DNA of 64,000 nt from NCBI GenBank assembly GCA_001662655.1, contig KV460235.1; one strand, 5' to 3'. Source of the DNA: Pseudogymnoascus verrucosus. Its lineage: Eukaryota. The notes beneath the pieces are model-generated. The model did not search any database. It was not told where the DNA came from and saw nothing but the letters and a program-made list of their open reading frames with translations. Of the stretch, positions 51,748 through 60,995 are shown piece by piece. The translations under genes were made by a program, and so were the position numbers. Positions within the stretch are counted from its first letter, which is position 1; each line of letters begins with the position of its first letter.

Positions 51748-52505
51748 GGATGAGGGAATGAAAGGTGAAAAGAAGGAGCGATAGATATGTATTTGTAAAG
51801 GTAGCGTGGACAGGAACTGAGCTAATTAAATATGATCCATCGCAGTGCTCATTTTATCTCTTTAGCTTTTGAGTATGTGTATATGATGCTCTTCACCCTT
51901 CTTGACAGATAACTTTCTTGACCTATAATTGAAGCTGCAACGACTTGTATGAGGAGTATGAGGAGTATACAAGACACATATCAATTGCTTGACCTACTCC
52001 TATATAGCGCGAGATAGTCACCGAGAACGGGAATTCCCTTCGCTGCTACGAATCATCCTAAAGCTTCTCATTCAAAGGGCCCGCACATTTTAAATACTCC
52101 ACCTTGAAAGGATCAATCACCTTTCCAGCCACAGTGGCAACATTATAACATAGCGGCCTCAAGCGGCCCTTAAACGTCCCCAAAGCTCTAGAGATGGTAC
52201 ATGCACTGCTTTCATCCGCCGTCAACTTTCTCCTTCCCAGTCAACACCTTGAAACTCGTGCCTCACTTCAGCCTTGTCTGATTTAGAAGGGACTCTACGA
52301 AAGCAAAACGAGGCTCCAAAGAAAAATAAATCAACGACACTACGCTATATTTGTTCGATCAATATCTCTTTAAACCCCGGAGTCAGTTTGGAAGACCTCG
52401 AACTGAATCTGTCCAACAAGCTAAAGTCTCCAATCAAGACTACAACTAAGGCCCCAAGCACGCCGCCCGATAAACAAGATCATCAAATATAAAATGGCAA
52501 AAAAA

Positions 52506-52624
52506 ACATACAACAGTGGGTATTCGCTGGTGGTCACCCACCCAACTACTAATCCACCGATCTCAAGCTTGTGTATGGCAGAGCGGACGGGATGCCCAAT
52601 TCTCTTGAGTCTATGGTCGTATGT
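52506..52624 (-). rRNA. Dispersed 5S rRNA gene (119 nt)
   Basis: Reverse complement ACATACGACCATAG...CCCGTCCGCTCTGCC...TTAGTAGTTGGGTGGGTGACCACCAGCGAA...CTGTTGTATGT followed by an oligo-T Pol III terminator; upstream TATATATA at 52647-52654; paired CTCAAG/CTTGAG helix. Confidence 0.95.
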
Positions 52625-53289
52625 GATTATTCTTCTGTTGGAAGAGTATATATACCCCTTTCTATCCTGGTATGTGTACCGTCAAATGAAAAACGCGAGG
52701 GTGGAATGAATGGCGTCGTGGAAAAAGAAGGCTTTAGCGATGAATACACGCAAACAACATACATATAAATATCAAGCACTCACTACTAAAGAAAAGTTAC
52801 TCCCTAGGTTCCTAAAAATCCCATCACATTATCCTCTATCCTATCATCATCGTCAAAAACCTCACCTATTCCCCCTATGCCCTCCCCCATTTCCTCTCCC
52901 CTCCCCCTGTCCCACTTCATGTGATCTGTATTTTATTTTTACACGGAGCGGGACCCGAAAAGATCGTGAATAACCGGGGTTATGCATTGGTTTGGACCAA
53001 GGTGGGATAGGAATGGTGTGATGGGGACTGAGATGACAGCGGGTCCGGGAATGTTGGAAGAAAAGGAGCAGCCAACCCCCACCCTGATCCTCTACCTAAT
53101 GATCCTCACCCAATATATATAGGCCGACCATAGGCCTTTCTAGGCCCCTCGGCCCGTGGTTTGGATGCCTGGTCACGACTCGCACCTTACATCGTGACTG
53201 GCACTGGCGCCGCATTCGTCTGGTGCGTGGGTTAACCCTTTACAATATATCTTAGTAAGGGCTGTAGACTGGACTATATCAGGCCGCGC

Positions 53290-54996
53290 TTATAATAAAC
53301 CACGTAAAGGTATTTTCGAAGTTGTGTGCAGCGTACGTTCATCAACCTTATAAGCATTAGTGTTGTTTTTGTGTCCCGTAAGGGGTGGGAGAGATATGAT
53401 GCCACCAGAAGCTTCATTGTGGAGTCGAACCGCAGTTCCATTGCTCTTCCATTCATCAACCTTGTCATGTCTAGTCGACCAAATACCTGACTTCCCTTGC
53501 GAAAGAATCCCATTAGGGTCTAAAAGCTCCTTTAATCCAGTAACAAACTTATTTAACGCTCCATCATTGAAATCGAAATGAGAAGCGATCTTACTCATAT
53601 AGTCTATATGCGTCCGATACTCTGAAGTCTGATGCTCCTCGTGCGCCTGAACCATCAACTCCTCGTACAGAGCATCGGCCCGTCTTCCCTCAGTGGGACC
53701 GTACACCATTACAACAATAGCGATAGTATACCTGCCGTAGCAATGGAAATCCGCAAAAAGATCAAAATTTTCTTCCGAGATTCGTTGACTGGCGAATTTG
53801 TACCACTCGTAGAGCTCCTTGCCTCCAGGTGGGAAAAGAGGAGAGAAACAGATATGTCCACCGCCATAACCTCGCGTATCCATCATCGGTAATGCTGAAA
53901 GGCGTGGGAATCCATTGTGTGGAATCTCGAACTCTGGCATGTCTCTAATTTTTAAGCGTTGGCCGCGTTTCGCTTCGTGATAGTCGGCCCCAAATTTCAC
54001 CCCGGGAACACCTTCGAAGGCATCTTGTACGCTTTCCCATGAAGTGTCAACAGCGGCTTTGGATGGTCCGTAAATGGCAAACATCCCTTTCCAGAATCCT
54101 CGTTCCTTGGTTAGGTTCAATCTATCGAGGAGTTCGCGGCTGGCGTGACCACCTTGAGAACCTGGCGCAAGGACTTGTTGAAGAATTGCTGGGTTTTCTG
54201 AGACGGCCATTTGTCGGAAAAGATTTGAGATTGTTGGATGATTCATGATGACGGATTCTCGTTGCAGACGAGAAAGGGTGCCGTTTAGAATACCTAAATC
54301 AAGCTTCCTCTGGAACACTGACTGAACAATCCATATATTGCGTTGGGGCGGGGGTCATGTGGATACCGAGCTTAGTAACTACGCCTGAAAAGGGGTTAGA
54401 CATTTGTCCCAAGAATGAAGACTTCTCTTTGACTGGTAGAAAAGGCTATCAATTCCAGGACCATACCCGCTGCGCGTTGTAAGTAAATTGAAACTGGGAG
54501 AGAAGTTGTGGACTCACCCTTTAAAGAGTGGACCCATGGTACAGTCCTTCTTCGCCCACATGCCTGTCCTAACGATCTCGCCATTGGATAACACAATCTC
54601 CATACCACATTGTTGCTGAGAATGTTCTCCATTTGGCGTGTAGCCGAATCCACGCTCGAGTACATTCCCAAGCACTGAACCCCAACCAAGCGCAGGTACC
54701 GATGGCCATAGATTATAGTCGTTCTTGTCTATATATTCGAAGAGGTCGAAAAAAGATACTCCAGGCTCTACCACGGCGTATGCGTATTCATGGTTAACCT
54801 CGATAATTTTGTTCATTCGGTGAAGATCTAGAACAACGGTGCCTCTAACGACAGGTGCAGAACCGCCATAGCTGCGATACACGTTAGTTATATCTTAATA
54901 TGCGTGCATCGTTCCGAATTGAAATTTGGTGTAGTTCAGATTCTTAACTTACCCCAGATTCTTGCCTCGGGATAGGGTCCAGAGAGGCAACTTATA
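53290..54996 (-). pseudogene. Vanillyl-alcohol oxidase / p-cresol methylhydroxylase-type flavoprotein pseudogene
   Basis: LPLWTLSRGKNLG|YGGSAP, VVLDLHRMNKI, AVVEPGVSFFDL, GSVLGNVLERGFGYT, GYGPGIDSLF, EYRTH, LDPNGILSQGKSGIW; N-terminus not found; donor after YQS lacks GT; frameshift near 54300 (VPEEA* versus DLGIL). Confidence 0.82.
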
Positions 54997-55729
54997 GTAT
55001 AATGCTAGATTTTATTGAGAGTAGCCTAGTATCGGCCTAACGTACTCTAAAACGAAGAATTACGAAGACTTAGTTTGGAGAAATGAAATAGAATGTTTAT
55101 GGTACTTATATGTGTTCCGGCCCAACCACGAAATATGCCCGCTCGTGAGCTGGCCGGCCCAACCACGAGCGGGGTAAGTGGCGGGTAGAACGTAGAAAGC
55201 CCTTTAAATTCAACATACCCCATTATATACTGTATAGTAATAGCAATTATGGCTACTATTACTTCAATAAACCCATTTCCACACGATGTGCGTACTGCTT
55301 TCGAAGCCTATATTAATAGTATAACCTATCATAATCGAGAGCTATTTTCAGACGAAAAGCAGAGCTGTATGCGCACTATACTCAAAGATATAGCAGCCTA
55401 TATACCACTAAATAAAGAGGCTGTTAATCTTAAACACTGTACGATATTGAACTTTACACTTGTTTATAATGAGCTATATAGAAAGAGTGATACAAGACAT
55501 CCTACTTCTTAATATATAGTTTAAAAAGCAGAGGTGTTTAATGTTATTACATAAGAGCACCTAAAGCTTCTACATGTAGGCTAGAATAAGGTATAGCCTA
55601 CTATTAAGTAATAGTACTATGGAATAAAGCGTGAGGATGTAGAGTTTATACTTAAACGGTGTAAGAATTGCACCTTAAACTAACTAAATACTATAAAAGC
55701 TCCCTTAGTTCCTATTATTATAGGGTGAG

Positions 55730-55951
55730 TGTAACGCGTAAGCCTAGGGTCTTACGGGAGTCTAGGGAACTAGGTTAGGAGGTAGAAAGGAATCGTATTT
55801 AGTAAGTACAATAGGTCTACGTAGATATAGCAACTATTAACTAGAGGCCTTAGTCCTACGCCTCTAGTCCCTTTTATGTTAGGTCTCCTAGTTTTACTAA
55901 GCCCTACTATGTCCTGCACGTAGGGGCGTCCTCACGTGACGCCCCTTTATA
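55730..55951. mobile_element. Solo LTR (222 bp) nested in the transposase
   Basis: TGTAAC...TTATA ends (TG..CA with a C>T change); 5-bp TSD GTGAG 55725-55729 / GCGAG 55952-55956; removal restores the integrase frame (III-G-R-A-x-E-x-VQI). Confidence 0.8.
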
Positions 55952-56574
55952 GCGAGCATAGGAGTAGGTTCAAATTAATCTAATTAATATGCACTATAAG
56001 CCTTTAGGACAGTATAAGTGGATTCTTTATATAAAGGATCACTTCTTAAAGTATACATAGCTATATCCATTAAAAAGCAAGCACGCAGAGCCTATTGCAG
56101 AGTACTTTGCTTAATTCATTACAGCTTTCTTACCTCCTAAGATTATGCAAGCTAATAATAGGAAGGAATTTAAAGGGGCTCTCCTTATTCTACTCTAGAA
56201 GTATAGAATATATGTAGTAAATGGAGCACTATAATCACTATAAACGCAAGGCCTAGTTAAGTAGGCAAATGGAGTTGTTAAGAATAAGCTATAGGCATGG
56301 AAAATGGACCATGGGTCTATAGAGTGGAAGGATGGGCTGCTTAAGGTTACACTTGCAATGAACACCTAAATCCACTCTACAATTAGGTATGCGCCAGCTA
56401 AACTACTATTCTAAGACAGGAGCTCTCATATTAACTGGCTTAATAGCTAGGCCTAGAAGGATCTCTTAATTAGAGTTGAGCAGGAAGACCTAACGATGGC
56501 ACCGATTTTTAAGAGTGAGCTTGATCCCAAAGCTCTAATTGACCCACAGCTCCGCCGAGCGCTAGAGATCTCAA

Positions 56575-56680
56575 TTGAGCTTAGAATTGAGAGCTCCCAC
56601 TCTAAGCCAGAGCTTAGAATTGAGCTTAGAATTGAGAGCTCCCACTCCGAGCCAGAACTCGGAATTGAGCTCGGAATTAA
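56575..56680 (+). repeat. Internal tandem repeat (about 45-bp unit built on a GAGCTTAGAATT 12-mer) within the transposase
   Basis: Encodes IELRIESSHSKPELR IELRIESSHSEPELG IELGI. Confidence 0.75.
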
Positions 56681-57860
56681 GCTCTGGTGTGGGACCTGGG
56701 CTCGCGTGCCAGCTCAGCATAGGACTAAGCTTTAGGCTACACCCAACCCTATAATTAAGAGAGCTATAGCAGCTACTCAACGGGTAAGGGTTGCAATGAT
56801 ACGGAAATACACTAAGAAGCACGATATTTAGCACTTTGATATAGGAGTAATAGTCTCTATAAAGGTGCCTTAAGAGGATGGAACCTCAACTAATAATAAG
56901 AGGCTATTTGCACGAATTCTAGAAGAGCCTTACCCTTATAGGTATTAGATTCTTATAGCTTCTAGTATTATACAACGCCTTATTCCTACTAAATCACTTA
57001 GAGTTATAGAGCGAGCTCTATAGGGTAATATAGTAATTCCTACTTCTATAAAGGAAGTAACACTAGGGCGTGTAGCTAGGGAGGCTTCTATAAGTGCACG
57101 GGTTAGAATATCTTGCTAGTGCAAACAGCAGTGTGGTACAAAGCGGTGCCGGTGCTATAAGGAAGCAAAGGAGTGTAGCGTACACTGTCATAATGATGAC
57201 CATAACTGTGGGAATTTATCAGGCCTTGCTACTCGTACAGAAATAGCTTTAGTTAAGAGGCCTCGTCGGAAACGAGCACGGGTAGACACAGCTGGAAAAG
57301 TAGCTATATAGATCAATTGATTACTTCTATTTCCAATTACTCGTGGTTGGGCCGGCCAGCTCACGAGCGGGCATATTTCGTGGTTGGGCCGGAACATATG
57401 TAACATCGTCCATATCGATCGATAACTAATGCGTCCCCTCCCGGCAAATTACCGGGGCCGGGGCACGATCGGCTCGCACGTACCACGATCCGGGGAACTG
57501 TGAACCCATCCGCGTATAATCTTGGCTTGTTCGAGTGACATCCACAAAAGCGGTTACTACTACGTCGGTTTTAAAGCTTCGGAATTGATAGGTAGGCTAG
57601 ATGCCGACAGAAAATAAAACAGGATAATTTATCATAACCAGGCTTTTGGTGGTGTGTCGGCAATTTAAAACAGCCGTCAACTTAGTTAGAGAGGATATAG
57701 GGGTTAGCTTACTGTGAAATACATACTCTGACAGCAGCGAAAACGCATTTTAAAAGGGTATCATGGCGAGAAACTTAGGACACAAGATATGGAGTTGAAG
57801 AAAACGACACATGCTGACGAGGCTTGAGGCTTTGACTATAATATCTAGCTCCGTACAAAA

Positions 57861-59462
57861 CTACTCGTTGAGGATGATAGTCTTTGTATGTACGAATTCA
57901 TCCAAACCCCAAGAGCCTCCAAAGCGGCCCCAACCGCTATCACCATGACCCCCGTGCGGTATTGTCGGCTCATCATGAACAGTGGCGCCGTTGATATGAA
58001 TAGCACCAACATTTAGGTCTTTCGCTATCATCATAGCCCGGTAGTGATTCCTAGTAAAGATGGCAGACGATAGTCCGAACGGGCAGTCATTGATGATCTT
58101 CGTGGCTTCACTTATGCTGTCAAATATCTGCAAACCTAACATAGGCCCGAACGACTCGGCGTGGTAGAAGTCCATAGATGGAATCATGTTATCGACAATA
58201 GTGGCTGGGATGATTGATGGGTCGGTATCATCTCCCGTAGTAATGTCTGCGCCCTTCGCGATGGCATCGTTGATGAGTGCACGTAGTCGCTCAGAGCTTT
58301 TAGTGGTGATGACTGCACTTATATCAGAGCTTGCTTTCTTCATGAGAACAATCAATTTCTTCCGATATGCCGCAAAGACTGAACGTGACACGAGCACGGT
58401 GTCAGTCGACATGCAAATCTGGCCGTTCTATGTCTTCTTAGCGCGTTTTCATTGGTGGGTTGAAGAACGAGAGAGCTAGGGATTCGTACATTTAAAAAAG
58501 CACCTTCTAGTGTTAGTCGTGCACTCTTATCCAGGTCGGCATCGTCAAGAATAATTGCAAAATTCTTTCCTCCAAGCTCAAGTAGGACCGGCTTTAACGA
58601 AGCAGCCGCGCGCGAAGCGATCAATCGTCCAACCGGCGTAGAGCCAGTGAAGTTGCATTTCCGAACAGCCGGGTGGCTGATCATCGTTTCGTATGCTGCT
58701 GATGCTTCTTGGGGTCGATGCATGATGAAATTCAGAACTCCTGGTGGAAAGCCAGCGTCTTGGAAAAGCTGGGCGATAAAATAGTGAACTCGTGGACTGA
58801 GTTCTGAGCCCTAGTTCTGAATATCACCAACTAAACTTTGGAACGAAGCACACGACAGGTTTGTTACCTTTAGAATTGCAGTATTGCCAGCTGCTATTGG
58901 CGCAACGACAGCACGAAATCCCAAGATCAGTGGTGCGTTCCATGGGGCAATCCCCAGAATAACACCCATTGGTTCCTTAAATACCAGAGCAGGTGCGTTG
59001 TGATTTCTAGTTATAGGTATGGTCCCTGAAAGTGCATCGGATGTAACCAAAGCTGCGGCTTCGTCAATTAGACCAAGAGAATCTTGCAAGTTGATATGCG
59101 ACCATAATTTAGAACAGTTGATCTCTTCCTCTATTATTTCTCTCACGTCGTCGCCACGCACTTCGAGCAGCTGCGAAGTAAATTTCAGTAAACTGACGAT
59201 GGCGACTTTGCATATATCTACTCACATGTTTAAGCTGCTGGAAAAGCTTTCGTTTCTGATCTGCGTCTGTTCTCTTCCATGATGGGAACGCTTTTGCACA
59301 CGATTCGACCGCACGCAAACACGTCTCTGTACTCGCTCCCTGGGCGAATGCTTTCTTCGGCGAAGGTTTACCGCCAAAGCGGTTCGTCTCAAAGACAAAC
59401 TCTACATCTGTTGTGACATCAAGGCCATCAATTATCAATGGTACGATATCGTCGCTCTTCAT
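57861..59462 (-). CDS. Aldehyde dehydrogenase, vanillin/salicylaldehyde dehydrogenase-like
   Basis: EPMGVILGIAPWNAP, LK|GSELSP, NFTGST, LELGGK, NGQICMST, ESFGP, TVHDEP..GWGRFG; three canonical introns; appears intact. Confidence 0.88.
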
Positions 59463-59950
59463 CTTGCAATAGAACGAAGTAAATGTTGAGCAATATGCGT
59501 CAACTACCCTTTTACTCCAGCTTAGTCTCTAGGTGCTATAGCCGGCTCCCTATAGTGGTAATTCCCTTTCATTTATGCCAAGATTCTGAAAGAAGCTAGG
59601 CGTTTGTAGCCGCTATATCCCCGAACTCCTCCTCCCCAAGACAATTTTTCAACCTTCATGTAAAGGCTTTTACGGTTCGGTTCGGGATGTGTAACTTATT
59701 ATAGATTACAGAGACCGCATGTTCAGCTTAGCACATAAATTTCTCATATCCTCTGTAATGAAACAATTATCCACGATAGGTCGTCGTCCAAGCAATTGTA
59801 TATATTCAAAACTTATTGCAACGGCATTTCTACATCCATAACTAAATAGACCAAGTTCGAATGTGAAGCTCCATTTTATTTCATACTTCTGAAAGCTAAG
59901 TAAAAGCCAACAATGATTCCATTTGTCCGATTTATACCATATTAGGGCTT

Positions 59951-60995
59951 CTATTTAAACTCCACGCCATTCCTTAAAGTTCCAACCCTCGTGATATGCA
60001 CTTCCATAATAGTTCCTGGAATCAAATACTTGGGGGGTTCATCCCAGCGCCAACACCTTCGAAGGTCAGCATTATTCAAAATTAGATGTTTTGGTAGCGG
60101 CTTGCCTCCTGGGGTTCCAGTCATGATGATACTTCCTTTCTGTAGCGTTGTACCGCTACTTAAGTAGCTTATCAAATACGCACAGTTGAACAAAGATCTG
60201 AAACTCCTTCATCTTGCCTCACCTCACCGTCGACAGTCGTCTTCAGGTGCAGTTTTGCTGGGTCATCAATCAGCTTTGAACTCACCAAGCAAGGGCCTAG
60301 CGGCGCAAAAGTATCAAATCCCTTGCTAAACCCCCATTGTGGAATGCGTCCTGCATATGCAGCGTCTCTCTGTAGCTTTCTCGAGGAGATGCCGTTTCCG
60401 CATGTGTAGGCTGCAACATAGTCCAGTGCATCCGCTTCAGAAACGTCTTTGGCATCACGACCTATCACGATACACTATTTGTTCAATCGCCATCTTTCTG
60501 AAAAGCAATATTATCACGTACCAATTCGCCTTCATAGTCTGCTTGATCGTCTTGACAGATCTTAGGGATAACAACATTTACGTTATGATCGGTGACGGTG
60601 GTGATTGGCTTAAAGAATATGAACGGAAATGGCGGAGCGGATCGATTGGCTTCCTTGACTGTTTTGAATATTGAGTCAGCTCGCTGGAAGAACAGTGCTA
60701 CGAGTTTTAATTACATACTATGTTTCGCATAGTTTAATCCTACGCATCTCAAAATTGGCACATCAGTTTGAGCTAACGGTCCCAGAAGCTCTTTTACGAT
60801 GGCGACCTCATTTGTTACTTCTGTCGCCCCAGTAGTATCATATAAATCATGGCCTGAGATAATTAAGGCTTTTAATTGCGTTTCAGCTGTCGTGTTGCCG
60901 AGATCGAAGTCAGGAGAAGGTAGGATAGGCTCTCCGCGCAATATGCGCCCGTCAGTTGCAACAAAACGAATTAATCGATTCCAAGCTACCGCCAT
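59951..60995 (-). pseudogene. Fumarylacetoacetate hydrolase (FAH) family gene, probably a pseudogene
   Basis: CVGLNYAKH, IFFKP, DYEGEL, WGFSKGFDTFAPLGP and IMTGTP motifs; apparent single-base losses near 60192 and in the G6 run 60032-60037; the GND motif reads GNG. Confidence 0.75.

Follow-up and report, generated by a model that had tools for sequence, protein, structure and literature searches.

Within a 64,000-nucleotide stretch of contig KV460235.1 of Pseudogymnoascus verrucosus (assembly GCA_001662655.1), called the window throughout, a 2284-bp element at positions 55113-57396 raises three questions: to which class of mobile DNA it belongs, whether it really inserted here, and how an element of this kind would leave its donor site. 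A sequence-only reading had described it as a complete Ginger2/TDD-like integrase transposon and as a possibly undescribed family. Based on its ends, its other copies in the genome, and the protein encoded by intact copies, the focal element is very probably a copy, inactivated by repeat-induced point mutation (RIP), of a multi-copy Ginger2/TDD family in a filamentous ascomycete, which inserts into RTATAY-like sites and carries a single integrase-type gene. The proposed class is thus supported, because the termini, the target-site duplication (TSD), the RTATAY preference, the HHCC zinc finger with the DDE core, the lack of a GPY/F motif and of a reverse transcriptase (RT), and the position in phylogenetic trees all agree.

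Ends, target sites, and copies in the genome

The two terminal inverted repeats (TIRs) of the focal element are each 57 bp long, are 100% complementary, and give the element TGT…ACA termini. Their length lies within the range of about 45-300 bp that characterises Ginger2/TDD elements. The left TIR (55113-55169, plus strand) starts with TGTTC and carries the motif CCGGCCCAACC at its positions 5 and 42, and the right TIR (57340-57396, minus strand) ends with GAACA. In 100 mononucleotide shuffles of window positions 53000-60000 the longest exact inverted repeat was 22 bp, with a mean of 13 bp. The 15-mer CCGGCCCAACCACGA is present twice in each TIR at a distance of 37 bp. The TIRs are directly flanked by the TSD TATG (55109-55112 and 57397-57400, no strand assigned). 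The perfect TIRs, the doubled 15-mer, and the exact 4-bp TSD had been noticed in the sequence-only reading, whose span of 55109..57400 runs from TSD to TSD, and all three are confirmed. Compared to the TGTNR pattern of Ginger2 ends, the first four positions of TGTTC fit but the fifth is C and not R. The GC content of the element is 40.8% versus 53.4% in the remaining window, and its TpA/ApT ratio is 1.57 versus 0.77.

The terminal 15-mer has 99 matches in the genome with at most one mismatch, compared to four for a reversed control. Among elements that retain both ends we examined 25, of which 16 are 2.0-2.5 kb and nine 66-897 bp in length. Exact 4-bp TSDs flank 18 of the 25 and TSDs with one mismatch another five. 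The target sites of the 18 elements with exact TSDs are RTATAY in 11 cases and within one mismatch of it in 17, against a background of 0.12% of window positions for exact matches and 1.3% within one mismatch. RTATAY is the target sequence given for Ginger2 (Bao, Kapitonov, and Jurka 2010, PMC2836005).

The full-length copies (2.0-2.5 kb) are intronless and each is filled by one open reading frame (ORF), which is intact in three copies (606, 611, and 738 residues) and open until an assembly gap in a fourth. Copies are 70-98% identical and fall into several subfamilies, two of which share 84% of their core residues; their TIRs match without gaps over 15-96 bp. Between the closest pairs there are 45-64 differences over about 2000-2160 sites, 8-11 of them transversions. 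No RT match was obtained in any of the 16 full-length copies, and the matches of an RT-RNaseH-integrase polyprotein to them were confined to its integrase part. The view that the element has no RT, gag, or long terminal repeats (LTRs) of its own thus held, and the LTR-like piece in the focal copy is a nested insert (see below). A search for longer forms fused to an RT gave three matches among 239 candidates, only one of which has RT domains, at 32% identity, and this is weak evidence.

Considering 32 ends from 16 copies, the two copies of CCGGCCCAACC are 37 bp apart at 13 ends, 56-57 bp apart at ten, and at other distances at two. The motif is conserved across subfamilies while the spacers differ, which fits a putative transposase binding site. 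The 20-bp step between the spacings corresponds to about two helical turns, which is compatible both with a phased binding site and with plain slippage of a 20-bp unit. The TIR comparison of loci L001, L003, L006, and L009 shows a short palindromic spacer of its own between the conserved motifs in each subfamily, and an extra 20-bp unit at some ends.

The smallest derivative (L044, G000:C6:624796-624861) is a 66-bp perfect palindrome consisting only of both transposon ends, with a TATA duplication. A divergent Ginger2-like copy with about 71% DNA identity and an open frame of 571 residues is located at G000:C20:192277-193680 (L178), where the 15-bp terminus has no match; it possibly represents a second family.

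The transposase protein

In the intact copy C18 the zinc finger is built from H104, H109, C138, and C141, and the catalytic residues are D168, D227, and E262, with 34 residues between the second aspartate and the glutamate (DD34E). The Pfam profile rve is above cut-off in all three intact proteins and Integrase_H2C2 in two of them, and rve matches all 39 aligned homologs. These profile matches were obtained with naturally intact copies, which were used in place of a RIP-reversed consensus. The three intact proteins contain no GP[YF]; a loose YPYY pattern matches N-terminal aromatic residues, a match too unspecific to count for or against that motif. Neither the C-terminal OTU or Ulp1 domain nor the CCGG/CCGT target of Ginger1 was seen in the family.

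The AlphaFold model of an intact copy (predicted local distance difference test, pLDDT, 82; predicted template-modelling score, pTM, 0.79) has its best fold matches in the intasomes of prototype foamy virus (PFV) and Ty3. Linker residues 354-415 have a pLDDT below 50 and are predicted to be disordered. The C-terminal barrel can be superposed on residues 306-375 of PFV integrase (Z 6.5, root-mean-square deviation 2.9, 67 aligned residues), and Foldseek gave no match for it at E ≤ 0.001. Because the PFV match is tied with Tudor/PWWP domains, only an SH3/Tudor-like fold is claimed for the modelled barrel, and nothing narrower. The Cys spacing of the C-terminal tail is identical in nine of the 12 proteins checked, including the Myzus, Littorina, and Rhizophagus anchors of the trees described below, and the nearest atlas match is a KRBA2-like cluster (score 0.96) with an SH3-like and Cys-rich C-terminus. 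Profile matches of the tail are below threshold (Pfam preSET_CXC, E 0.017; EZH2 CXC, E about 3). The suggested likeness to the Ginger2/KRBA2 type is thus found again as the same spacing in animal and Rhizophagus Ginger2/KRBA2-like proteins.

Decay of the focal copy

The transposase gene of the focal copy extends on the plus strand from an ATG at 55249 to a stop at 57309-57311 and, as had been recognised, is a single ORF relic with zinc-binding, DDE-core, and Cys-rich segments. It contains 27 premature stops, 16 TAG, 11 TAA, and no TGA. The residues of the zinc finger (H-x4-H … C-x2-C, 55558-55671, plus strand, placed by Integrase_H2C2 on intact copies) are retained. In the catalytic core (55968-56261, plus strand, placed by the C18 residues and by rve) the catalytic D, D, and E have become N (55977), N (56154), and K (56259). 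Further downstream on the same strand follow a low-complexity linker of variable length, predicted to be disordered and with 45-bp repeats in this copy (56561-56681), the SH3/Tudor-like beta-barrel, whose approximate span is taken from structure comparison and which is placed like an integrase C-terminal domain (56832-57020), and the Cys-rich, CXC-like segment with Cys spacing as in Ginger2 anchor proteins (57114-57208) and then a basic tail.

The nearest copy, on contig C7, is 90% identical. Of the 204 differences, 105 are C>T or G>A changes toward the focal copy, and 75 of these 105 are at CpA. A CpA bias of C>T changes is the pattern of RIP, and because the changes are concentrated at CpA the focal copy is regarded as RIP-like. 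Judged by its sequence, it is RIP-inactivated and unable to make an active enzyme. Its perfect TIRs could in principle still be used in trans.

In addition, the gene is split between the zinc finger and the catalytic core by a 222-bp insert of a separate repeat family (55730-55951, plus strand). The insert begins with TGT and ends with TTTATA (TGT…(C/T)A), and is flanked by a 5-bp TSD with one C>T change, GTGAG at 55725-55729 and GCGAG at 55952-55956 (no strand). It is missing from the other copies of the transposon. Its own family has 30 matches in the genome, and five of 11 other copies inspected have TGT…ACA ends and exact 5-bp TSDs, because of which it looks like a solo LTR. The earlier description as a complete element therefore holds for the outline but not for the gene, which is dead and split by an insert that had been overlooked. 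The solo-LTR-like family is about 220-260 bp long and comprises two variants with the first approximately 120 bp in common (L054, L059-L062). Two candidate parents were rejected: a Gypsy element near one insert copy has different LTRs, and the sequence after another insert copy consists of ordinary genes.

Filled and empty sites

Four of 23 sequencing runs (X1, X2, X4, and X18) were compared across 54200-58300. In X4 and X18, which come from two studies, 9.7-kb contigs pass directly from one flank to the other and lack exactly 2288 bp, which is the 2284-bp element plus one 4-bp copy of the TSD. In X1, from which the window itself may derive, and in X2, contigs extend from each flank into the TIR, and these two runs thus carry the insertion. 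The focal element is thus a true insertion that is polymorphic among related fungi, and the empty TATG site that the sequence-only reading had proposed to look for exists in X4 and X18. Element-like contigs are present in all four runs at a depth far above that of the flanks, and the family is therefore present in each of them.

How the element may move

Insertion took place with a 4-bp stagger at near-palindromic AT-rich sites, and the family encodes a stand-alone enzyme of integrase fold. By analogy to retroviral integrase chemistry, a transposase multimer would bind the terminal and subterminal CCGGCCCAACC motifs, the DDE core would expose a CA-3'OH at each end, both ends would be joined to the target in a concerted reaction with a 4-bp stagger, and host repair would fill the stagger and so yield the TSD. 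The least certain step is the release of the donor, which would happen by cut-and-paste excision. Internally deleted copies are a typical product of abortive gap repair where a donor has been excised. Because such copies exist, cut-and-paste excision seems the likelier route with reasonable, if not high, confidence. It has to be weighed against this that the empty sites look the same as sites of precise excision would and may simply predate the insertion.

The same family could also move replicatively, with only the CA-3' strand nicked as by retroviral and IS3-type enzymes, by copy-out/paste-in or through a cointegrate, so that the donor stays in place. In favour of this, the nearest folds belong to retroviral and Ty3 integrases, which are enzymes of integration and not of excision, the loci examined show no excision footprint, and for Ginger1 and Polinton the excision mechanism is stated to be unknown (PMC2836005). 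What speaks against a replicative route are the copies of 66-897 bp, which have lost internal sequence but kept intact ends and TSDs of their own, although deletion in place could explain them as well. Altogether, we consider it unlikely that the donor stays, but take this alternative seriously.

Phylogenetic placement and class assignment

As proxies for Repbase sequences we used stored proteins, identified by visual comparison with the alignment strips that PMC10045372 provides in its Data S3. These anchors are P0213 (Ginger2-1_MyPe), P0196 (Rhizophagus clarus, near RIr), P0192 (near TS), P0198 (near BF), and P0277 (Malassezia furfur, near MG). Three trees, with 77, 30, and 31 rows, place the family and the Ginger2 anchors in one supported clade (100/94, 96/96, and 96/94, respectively), from which Gypsy and viral-type integrases are separate. 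The approximately unbiased test rejects a topology that unites the family with the four Gypsy-type rows (p-AU 0.002). Neither a grouping with Gypsy nor full-length copies with an RT, which would have spoken against the sequence-only reading, were thus observed. The leotiomycete and hypocrealean rows form a clade of their own (100/98-99). The proxies from Malassezia and Rhizophagus fall together with animal rows (97/94) and not with the ascomycete family. Core identity is 78/211 (37%) to the Malassezia furfur proxy, 76/201 (38%) to the Rhizophagus clarus proxy, and 34-42% to the Ginger2 anchors as a whole. Compared by eye, the family shares QxDLID, DHFSK, DNGxEF, and QGLxE with the Ginger2 strips of Repbase but not the motifs of Ginger1.

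Several points weigh against the assignment or its reach. The phylogeny proposed earlier was obtained only in part: the grouping with Ginger2 and the rejection of Gypsy stand, but the comparison took in no Ginger1, Polinton, TDD-4, or divergent Ginger2 (NV/CGi-type) rows. The searches that supplied the animal rows had been seeded with this family, no more than four Gypsy-type and two to four viral-type rows served as outgroup, and the ascomycete family stands beside the anchor clade in an unresolved basal set and is not nested inside it. Two of the 25 paired elements have no TSD, and seven of the 32 ends, two of them at assembly gaps, carry a single motif copy. There are also no near-identical pairs among the copies (the closest are 98% identical), and current activity is thus unsupported.

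The family might be a separate integrase-type lineage that is either the sister group of Ginger2 or lies outside it, with ties to the integrases of Polintons or large viruses, for instance. This view is compatible with the low core identity to the anchors, with the place outside the anchor clade and beside viral-type integrases, albeit in a tree with a sparse outgroup, and with the existence of environmental relatives that have 5-bp TSDs. However, termini, TSD, and RTATAY preference match Ginger2, the protein has the HHCC finger that Polinton integrases lack (PMC2836005), the four shared motifs and the Cys-rich tail are those of Ginger2, and Ginger2/TDD already covers both 4-bp and 5-bp TSDs, the latter in TDD-4/5 (PMC10045372). 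Such a separate origin is accordingly judged very improbable. That the element is a decayed piece of a Gypsy LTR retrotransposon flanked by inverted repeats by chance can be dismissed almost completely, because the LTR-like sequence inside the focal copy is flanked by a separate 5-bp TSD and does not occur in the other copies, RT is lacking in all 16 full-length copies and GPY/F in the three intact proteins, a joint clade with Gypsy is rejected, and the core, although it matches a Gypsy-type polyprotein at about 31-35%, is only 22-34% identical to the genome's own Gypsy integrases, which branch apart.

Concerning novelty, PMC2836005 defines Ginger2 with a Malassezia vestige without TIRs as its sole fungal entry. 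Kojima and Bao (2023, PMC10045372) drew on 30 Ginger2 entries of Repbase, and among the 24 Ginger2 rows of their Data S3 two carry a suffix that can be read as fungal, while no suffix reads as that of an ascomycete. Muszewska (2017, PMC5751038) counted 6,648 fungal Ginger elements by their rve domain, ubiquitous and with expansions in Dikarya, and DNA/Ginger-2 is listed for Metarhizium brunneum V275 (PMC11457142). PMC9281073 lists Ginger-1 only, and the 'Ginger' matches in PMC9410150 and PMC9861600 are an author name and not the element. No structural description of an ascomycete Ginger2 family was found in the literature searched, in which subscription journals, Repbase Reports, and Dfam are thinly covered. 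Thus, as far as we found, the Ginger2 family is new at the level of an element description, while ascomycete presence had been noted in bulk before, and the earlier suggestion of an undescribed family was somewhat overstated with regard to the two reports of Ginger just mentioned.

Relatives in other fungi and in the environment

The closest named homologs are found in Pseudogymnoascus species, followed by Scytalidium, Metarhizium, Torrubiella, Cudoniella, Oidiodendron, and Lasallia, and there are also homologs in Xylogone. Full-length identity to the Metarhizium homologs is 64% and core identity 78-79%; M. majus and M. guizhouense contribute several full-length proteins to one Metarhizium cluster, and the homolog of Metarhizium anisopliae is annotated as 'SCAN domain-containing protein 3'. 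The cores of the hypocrealean homologs P0015, P0042, and P0046 are 72-79% identical to that of L003, and these proteins interleave with leotiomycete rows in the tree. The interleaving may be taken as a lead for horizontal transfer.

Ends were screened at 44 of 80 metagenome loci and at three viral loci. Eight of these 47 loci have TGT termini and exact TSDs, 4 bp long in five and 5 bp in three. The ends of the related environmental elements read TGTTC, TGTTA, TGTCG, and TGTGT, and because they differ at the fifth terminal base this position varies within the group. Three environmental loci (L080, L094, and L095) have TIRs of 131-156 bp beginning with TGTTCTAGTCCA and 5-bp TSDs, which have no sequence in common, unlike those of the RTATAY-targeting focal family. 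The three matches in viral contigs are distant (23-30%) and none has a convincing TIR or TSD. Three metagenome loci of high GC content (L099, L101, and L102) resemble the Malassezia protein P0277 by eye. No TIR was found at any of the three, and at L101 and L102 the C-terminal match ends before the Cys-rich tail. These loci may represent a domesticated form.

Neighbouring genes

The neighbourhood of the element (53290-60208) contains genes for a FAD-linked (flavin adenine dinucleotide) oxidase, an aldehyde dehydrogenase, and a protein of the fumarylacetoacetate hydrolase family, and this cluster possibly serves the catabolism of aromatic compounds. The oxidase gene (about 53290-54993, minus strand) begins part-way into its FAD-binding domain. 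At window positions 54992-54993, 120 bp from the left TIR, the empty alleles of X4 and X18 have about 290 extra bases that are absent from the window, X1, and X2. Because about 290 bases are missing and the gene starts inside a domain, the 5' coding part of the oxidase has probably been lost in the lineage carrying the insertion. In the oxidase region, X2, X4, and X18 also have nine extra bases at window position 54427, which the window and X1 do not have. Judged from its translated frames, the sequence at window positions 52421-52681 resembles a copy of a 5S ribosomal RNA gene.

Significance and comparison with known systems

Ginger2 is a candidate DNA-transposon ancestor of the integrases of LTR retrotransposons. 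Taken alone, the focal copy is no more than an ordinary dead insertion, and the interest lies in its intact sister copies and in the excision mechanism. The family would be the first structurally defined, deep, ascomycete-centred branch of Ginger2, apart from both catalogued fungal entries, with horizontal transfer between Leotiomycetes and Hypocreales and with transposition-competent intronless 2-kb copies; taken as a whole this reading is tentative and somewhat more doubtful than not. Its horizontal-transfer part is based on the core identity of the Metarhizium homologs, 78-79%, compared to 84% between the two subfamilies within this genome. If this is true, the excision of integrase-type DNA transposons could be resolved in a minimal system. 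The question becomes testable because the family is small and free of introns, has intact ORFs, defined 15-bp ends, and a sharp target preference, and occurs as filled as well as empty alleles in related fungi. It also provides a verified element behind the bulk counts of fungal 'Ginger', which rest on the rve domain that is common to LTR elements.

With the Ginger2/TDD families described in PMC2836005 the family shares TGT termini, TIRs within the range of 45-180 bp, a 4-bp TSD, the RTATAY target, and a single ORF with H2C2 finger and DDE core but without GPY/F and RT. It differs from them in its ascomycete host, in the fifth terminal base, and in being intronless and only 2.0-2.5 kb long, whereas the autonomous elements tabulated there are 2.75-6.7 kb in length. 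Judged by the proxies, it has core motifs and a supported clade in common with Ginger2-1_MG (Malassezia globosa) and Ginger2-1_RIr (Rhizophagus irregularis), which are set apart by their low core identity and their grouping with animal Ginger2. GingerRoot has 6-bp TSDs and mostly TA ends (PMC6839031). The label DNA/Ginger-2 in Metarhizium brunneum (PMC11457142) is a RepeatModeler class label given there without TIR, TSD, target, or phylogeny; because of the identities of the Metarhizium homologs it probably refers to the same lineage as the focal family.

KRBA2 and SCAND3 have been tied to Ginger2 (Llorens et al. 2012, PMC3575427), and KRBA2/SCAND3-like proteins share the Ginger2-derived core and the SH3-like and Cys-rich C-terminus with the family described here. 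However, they are domesticated single-copy genes, while the family is a dispersed, TIR-bounded transposon without KRAB or SCAN domain. Ginger1 and Gypsy integrases likewise have the HHCC finger and DDE core, TG…CA ends, and an SH3-like C-terminal barrel, from which the family differs by the absence of GPY/F, OTU/Ulp1, RT, and LTRs and by its AT-rich instead of CCGG target. In contrast to Polinton/Maverick elements, which are large, encode a DNA polymerase, generate 6-bp TSDs, and have no HHCC finger, the focal family combines a single ORF of integrase type, including that finger, with a length of 2.0-2.5 kb and a 4-bp TSD.

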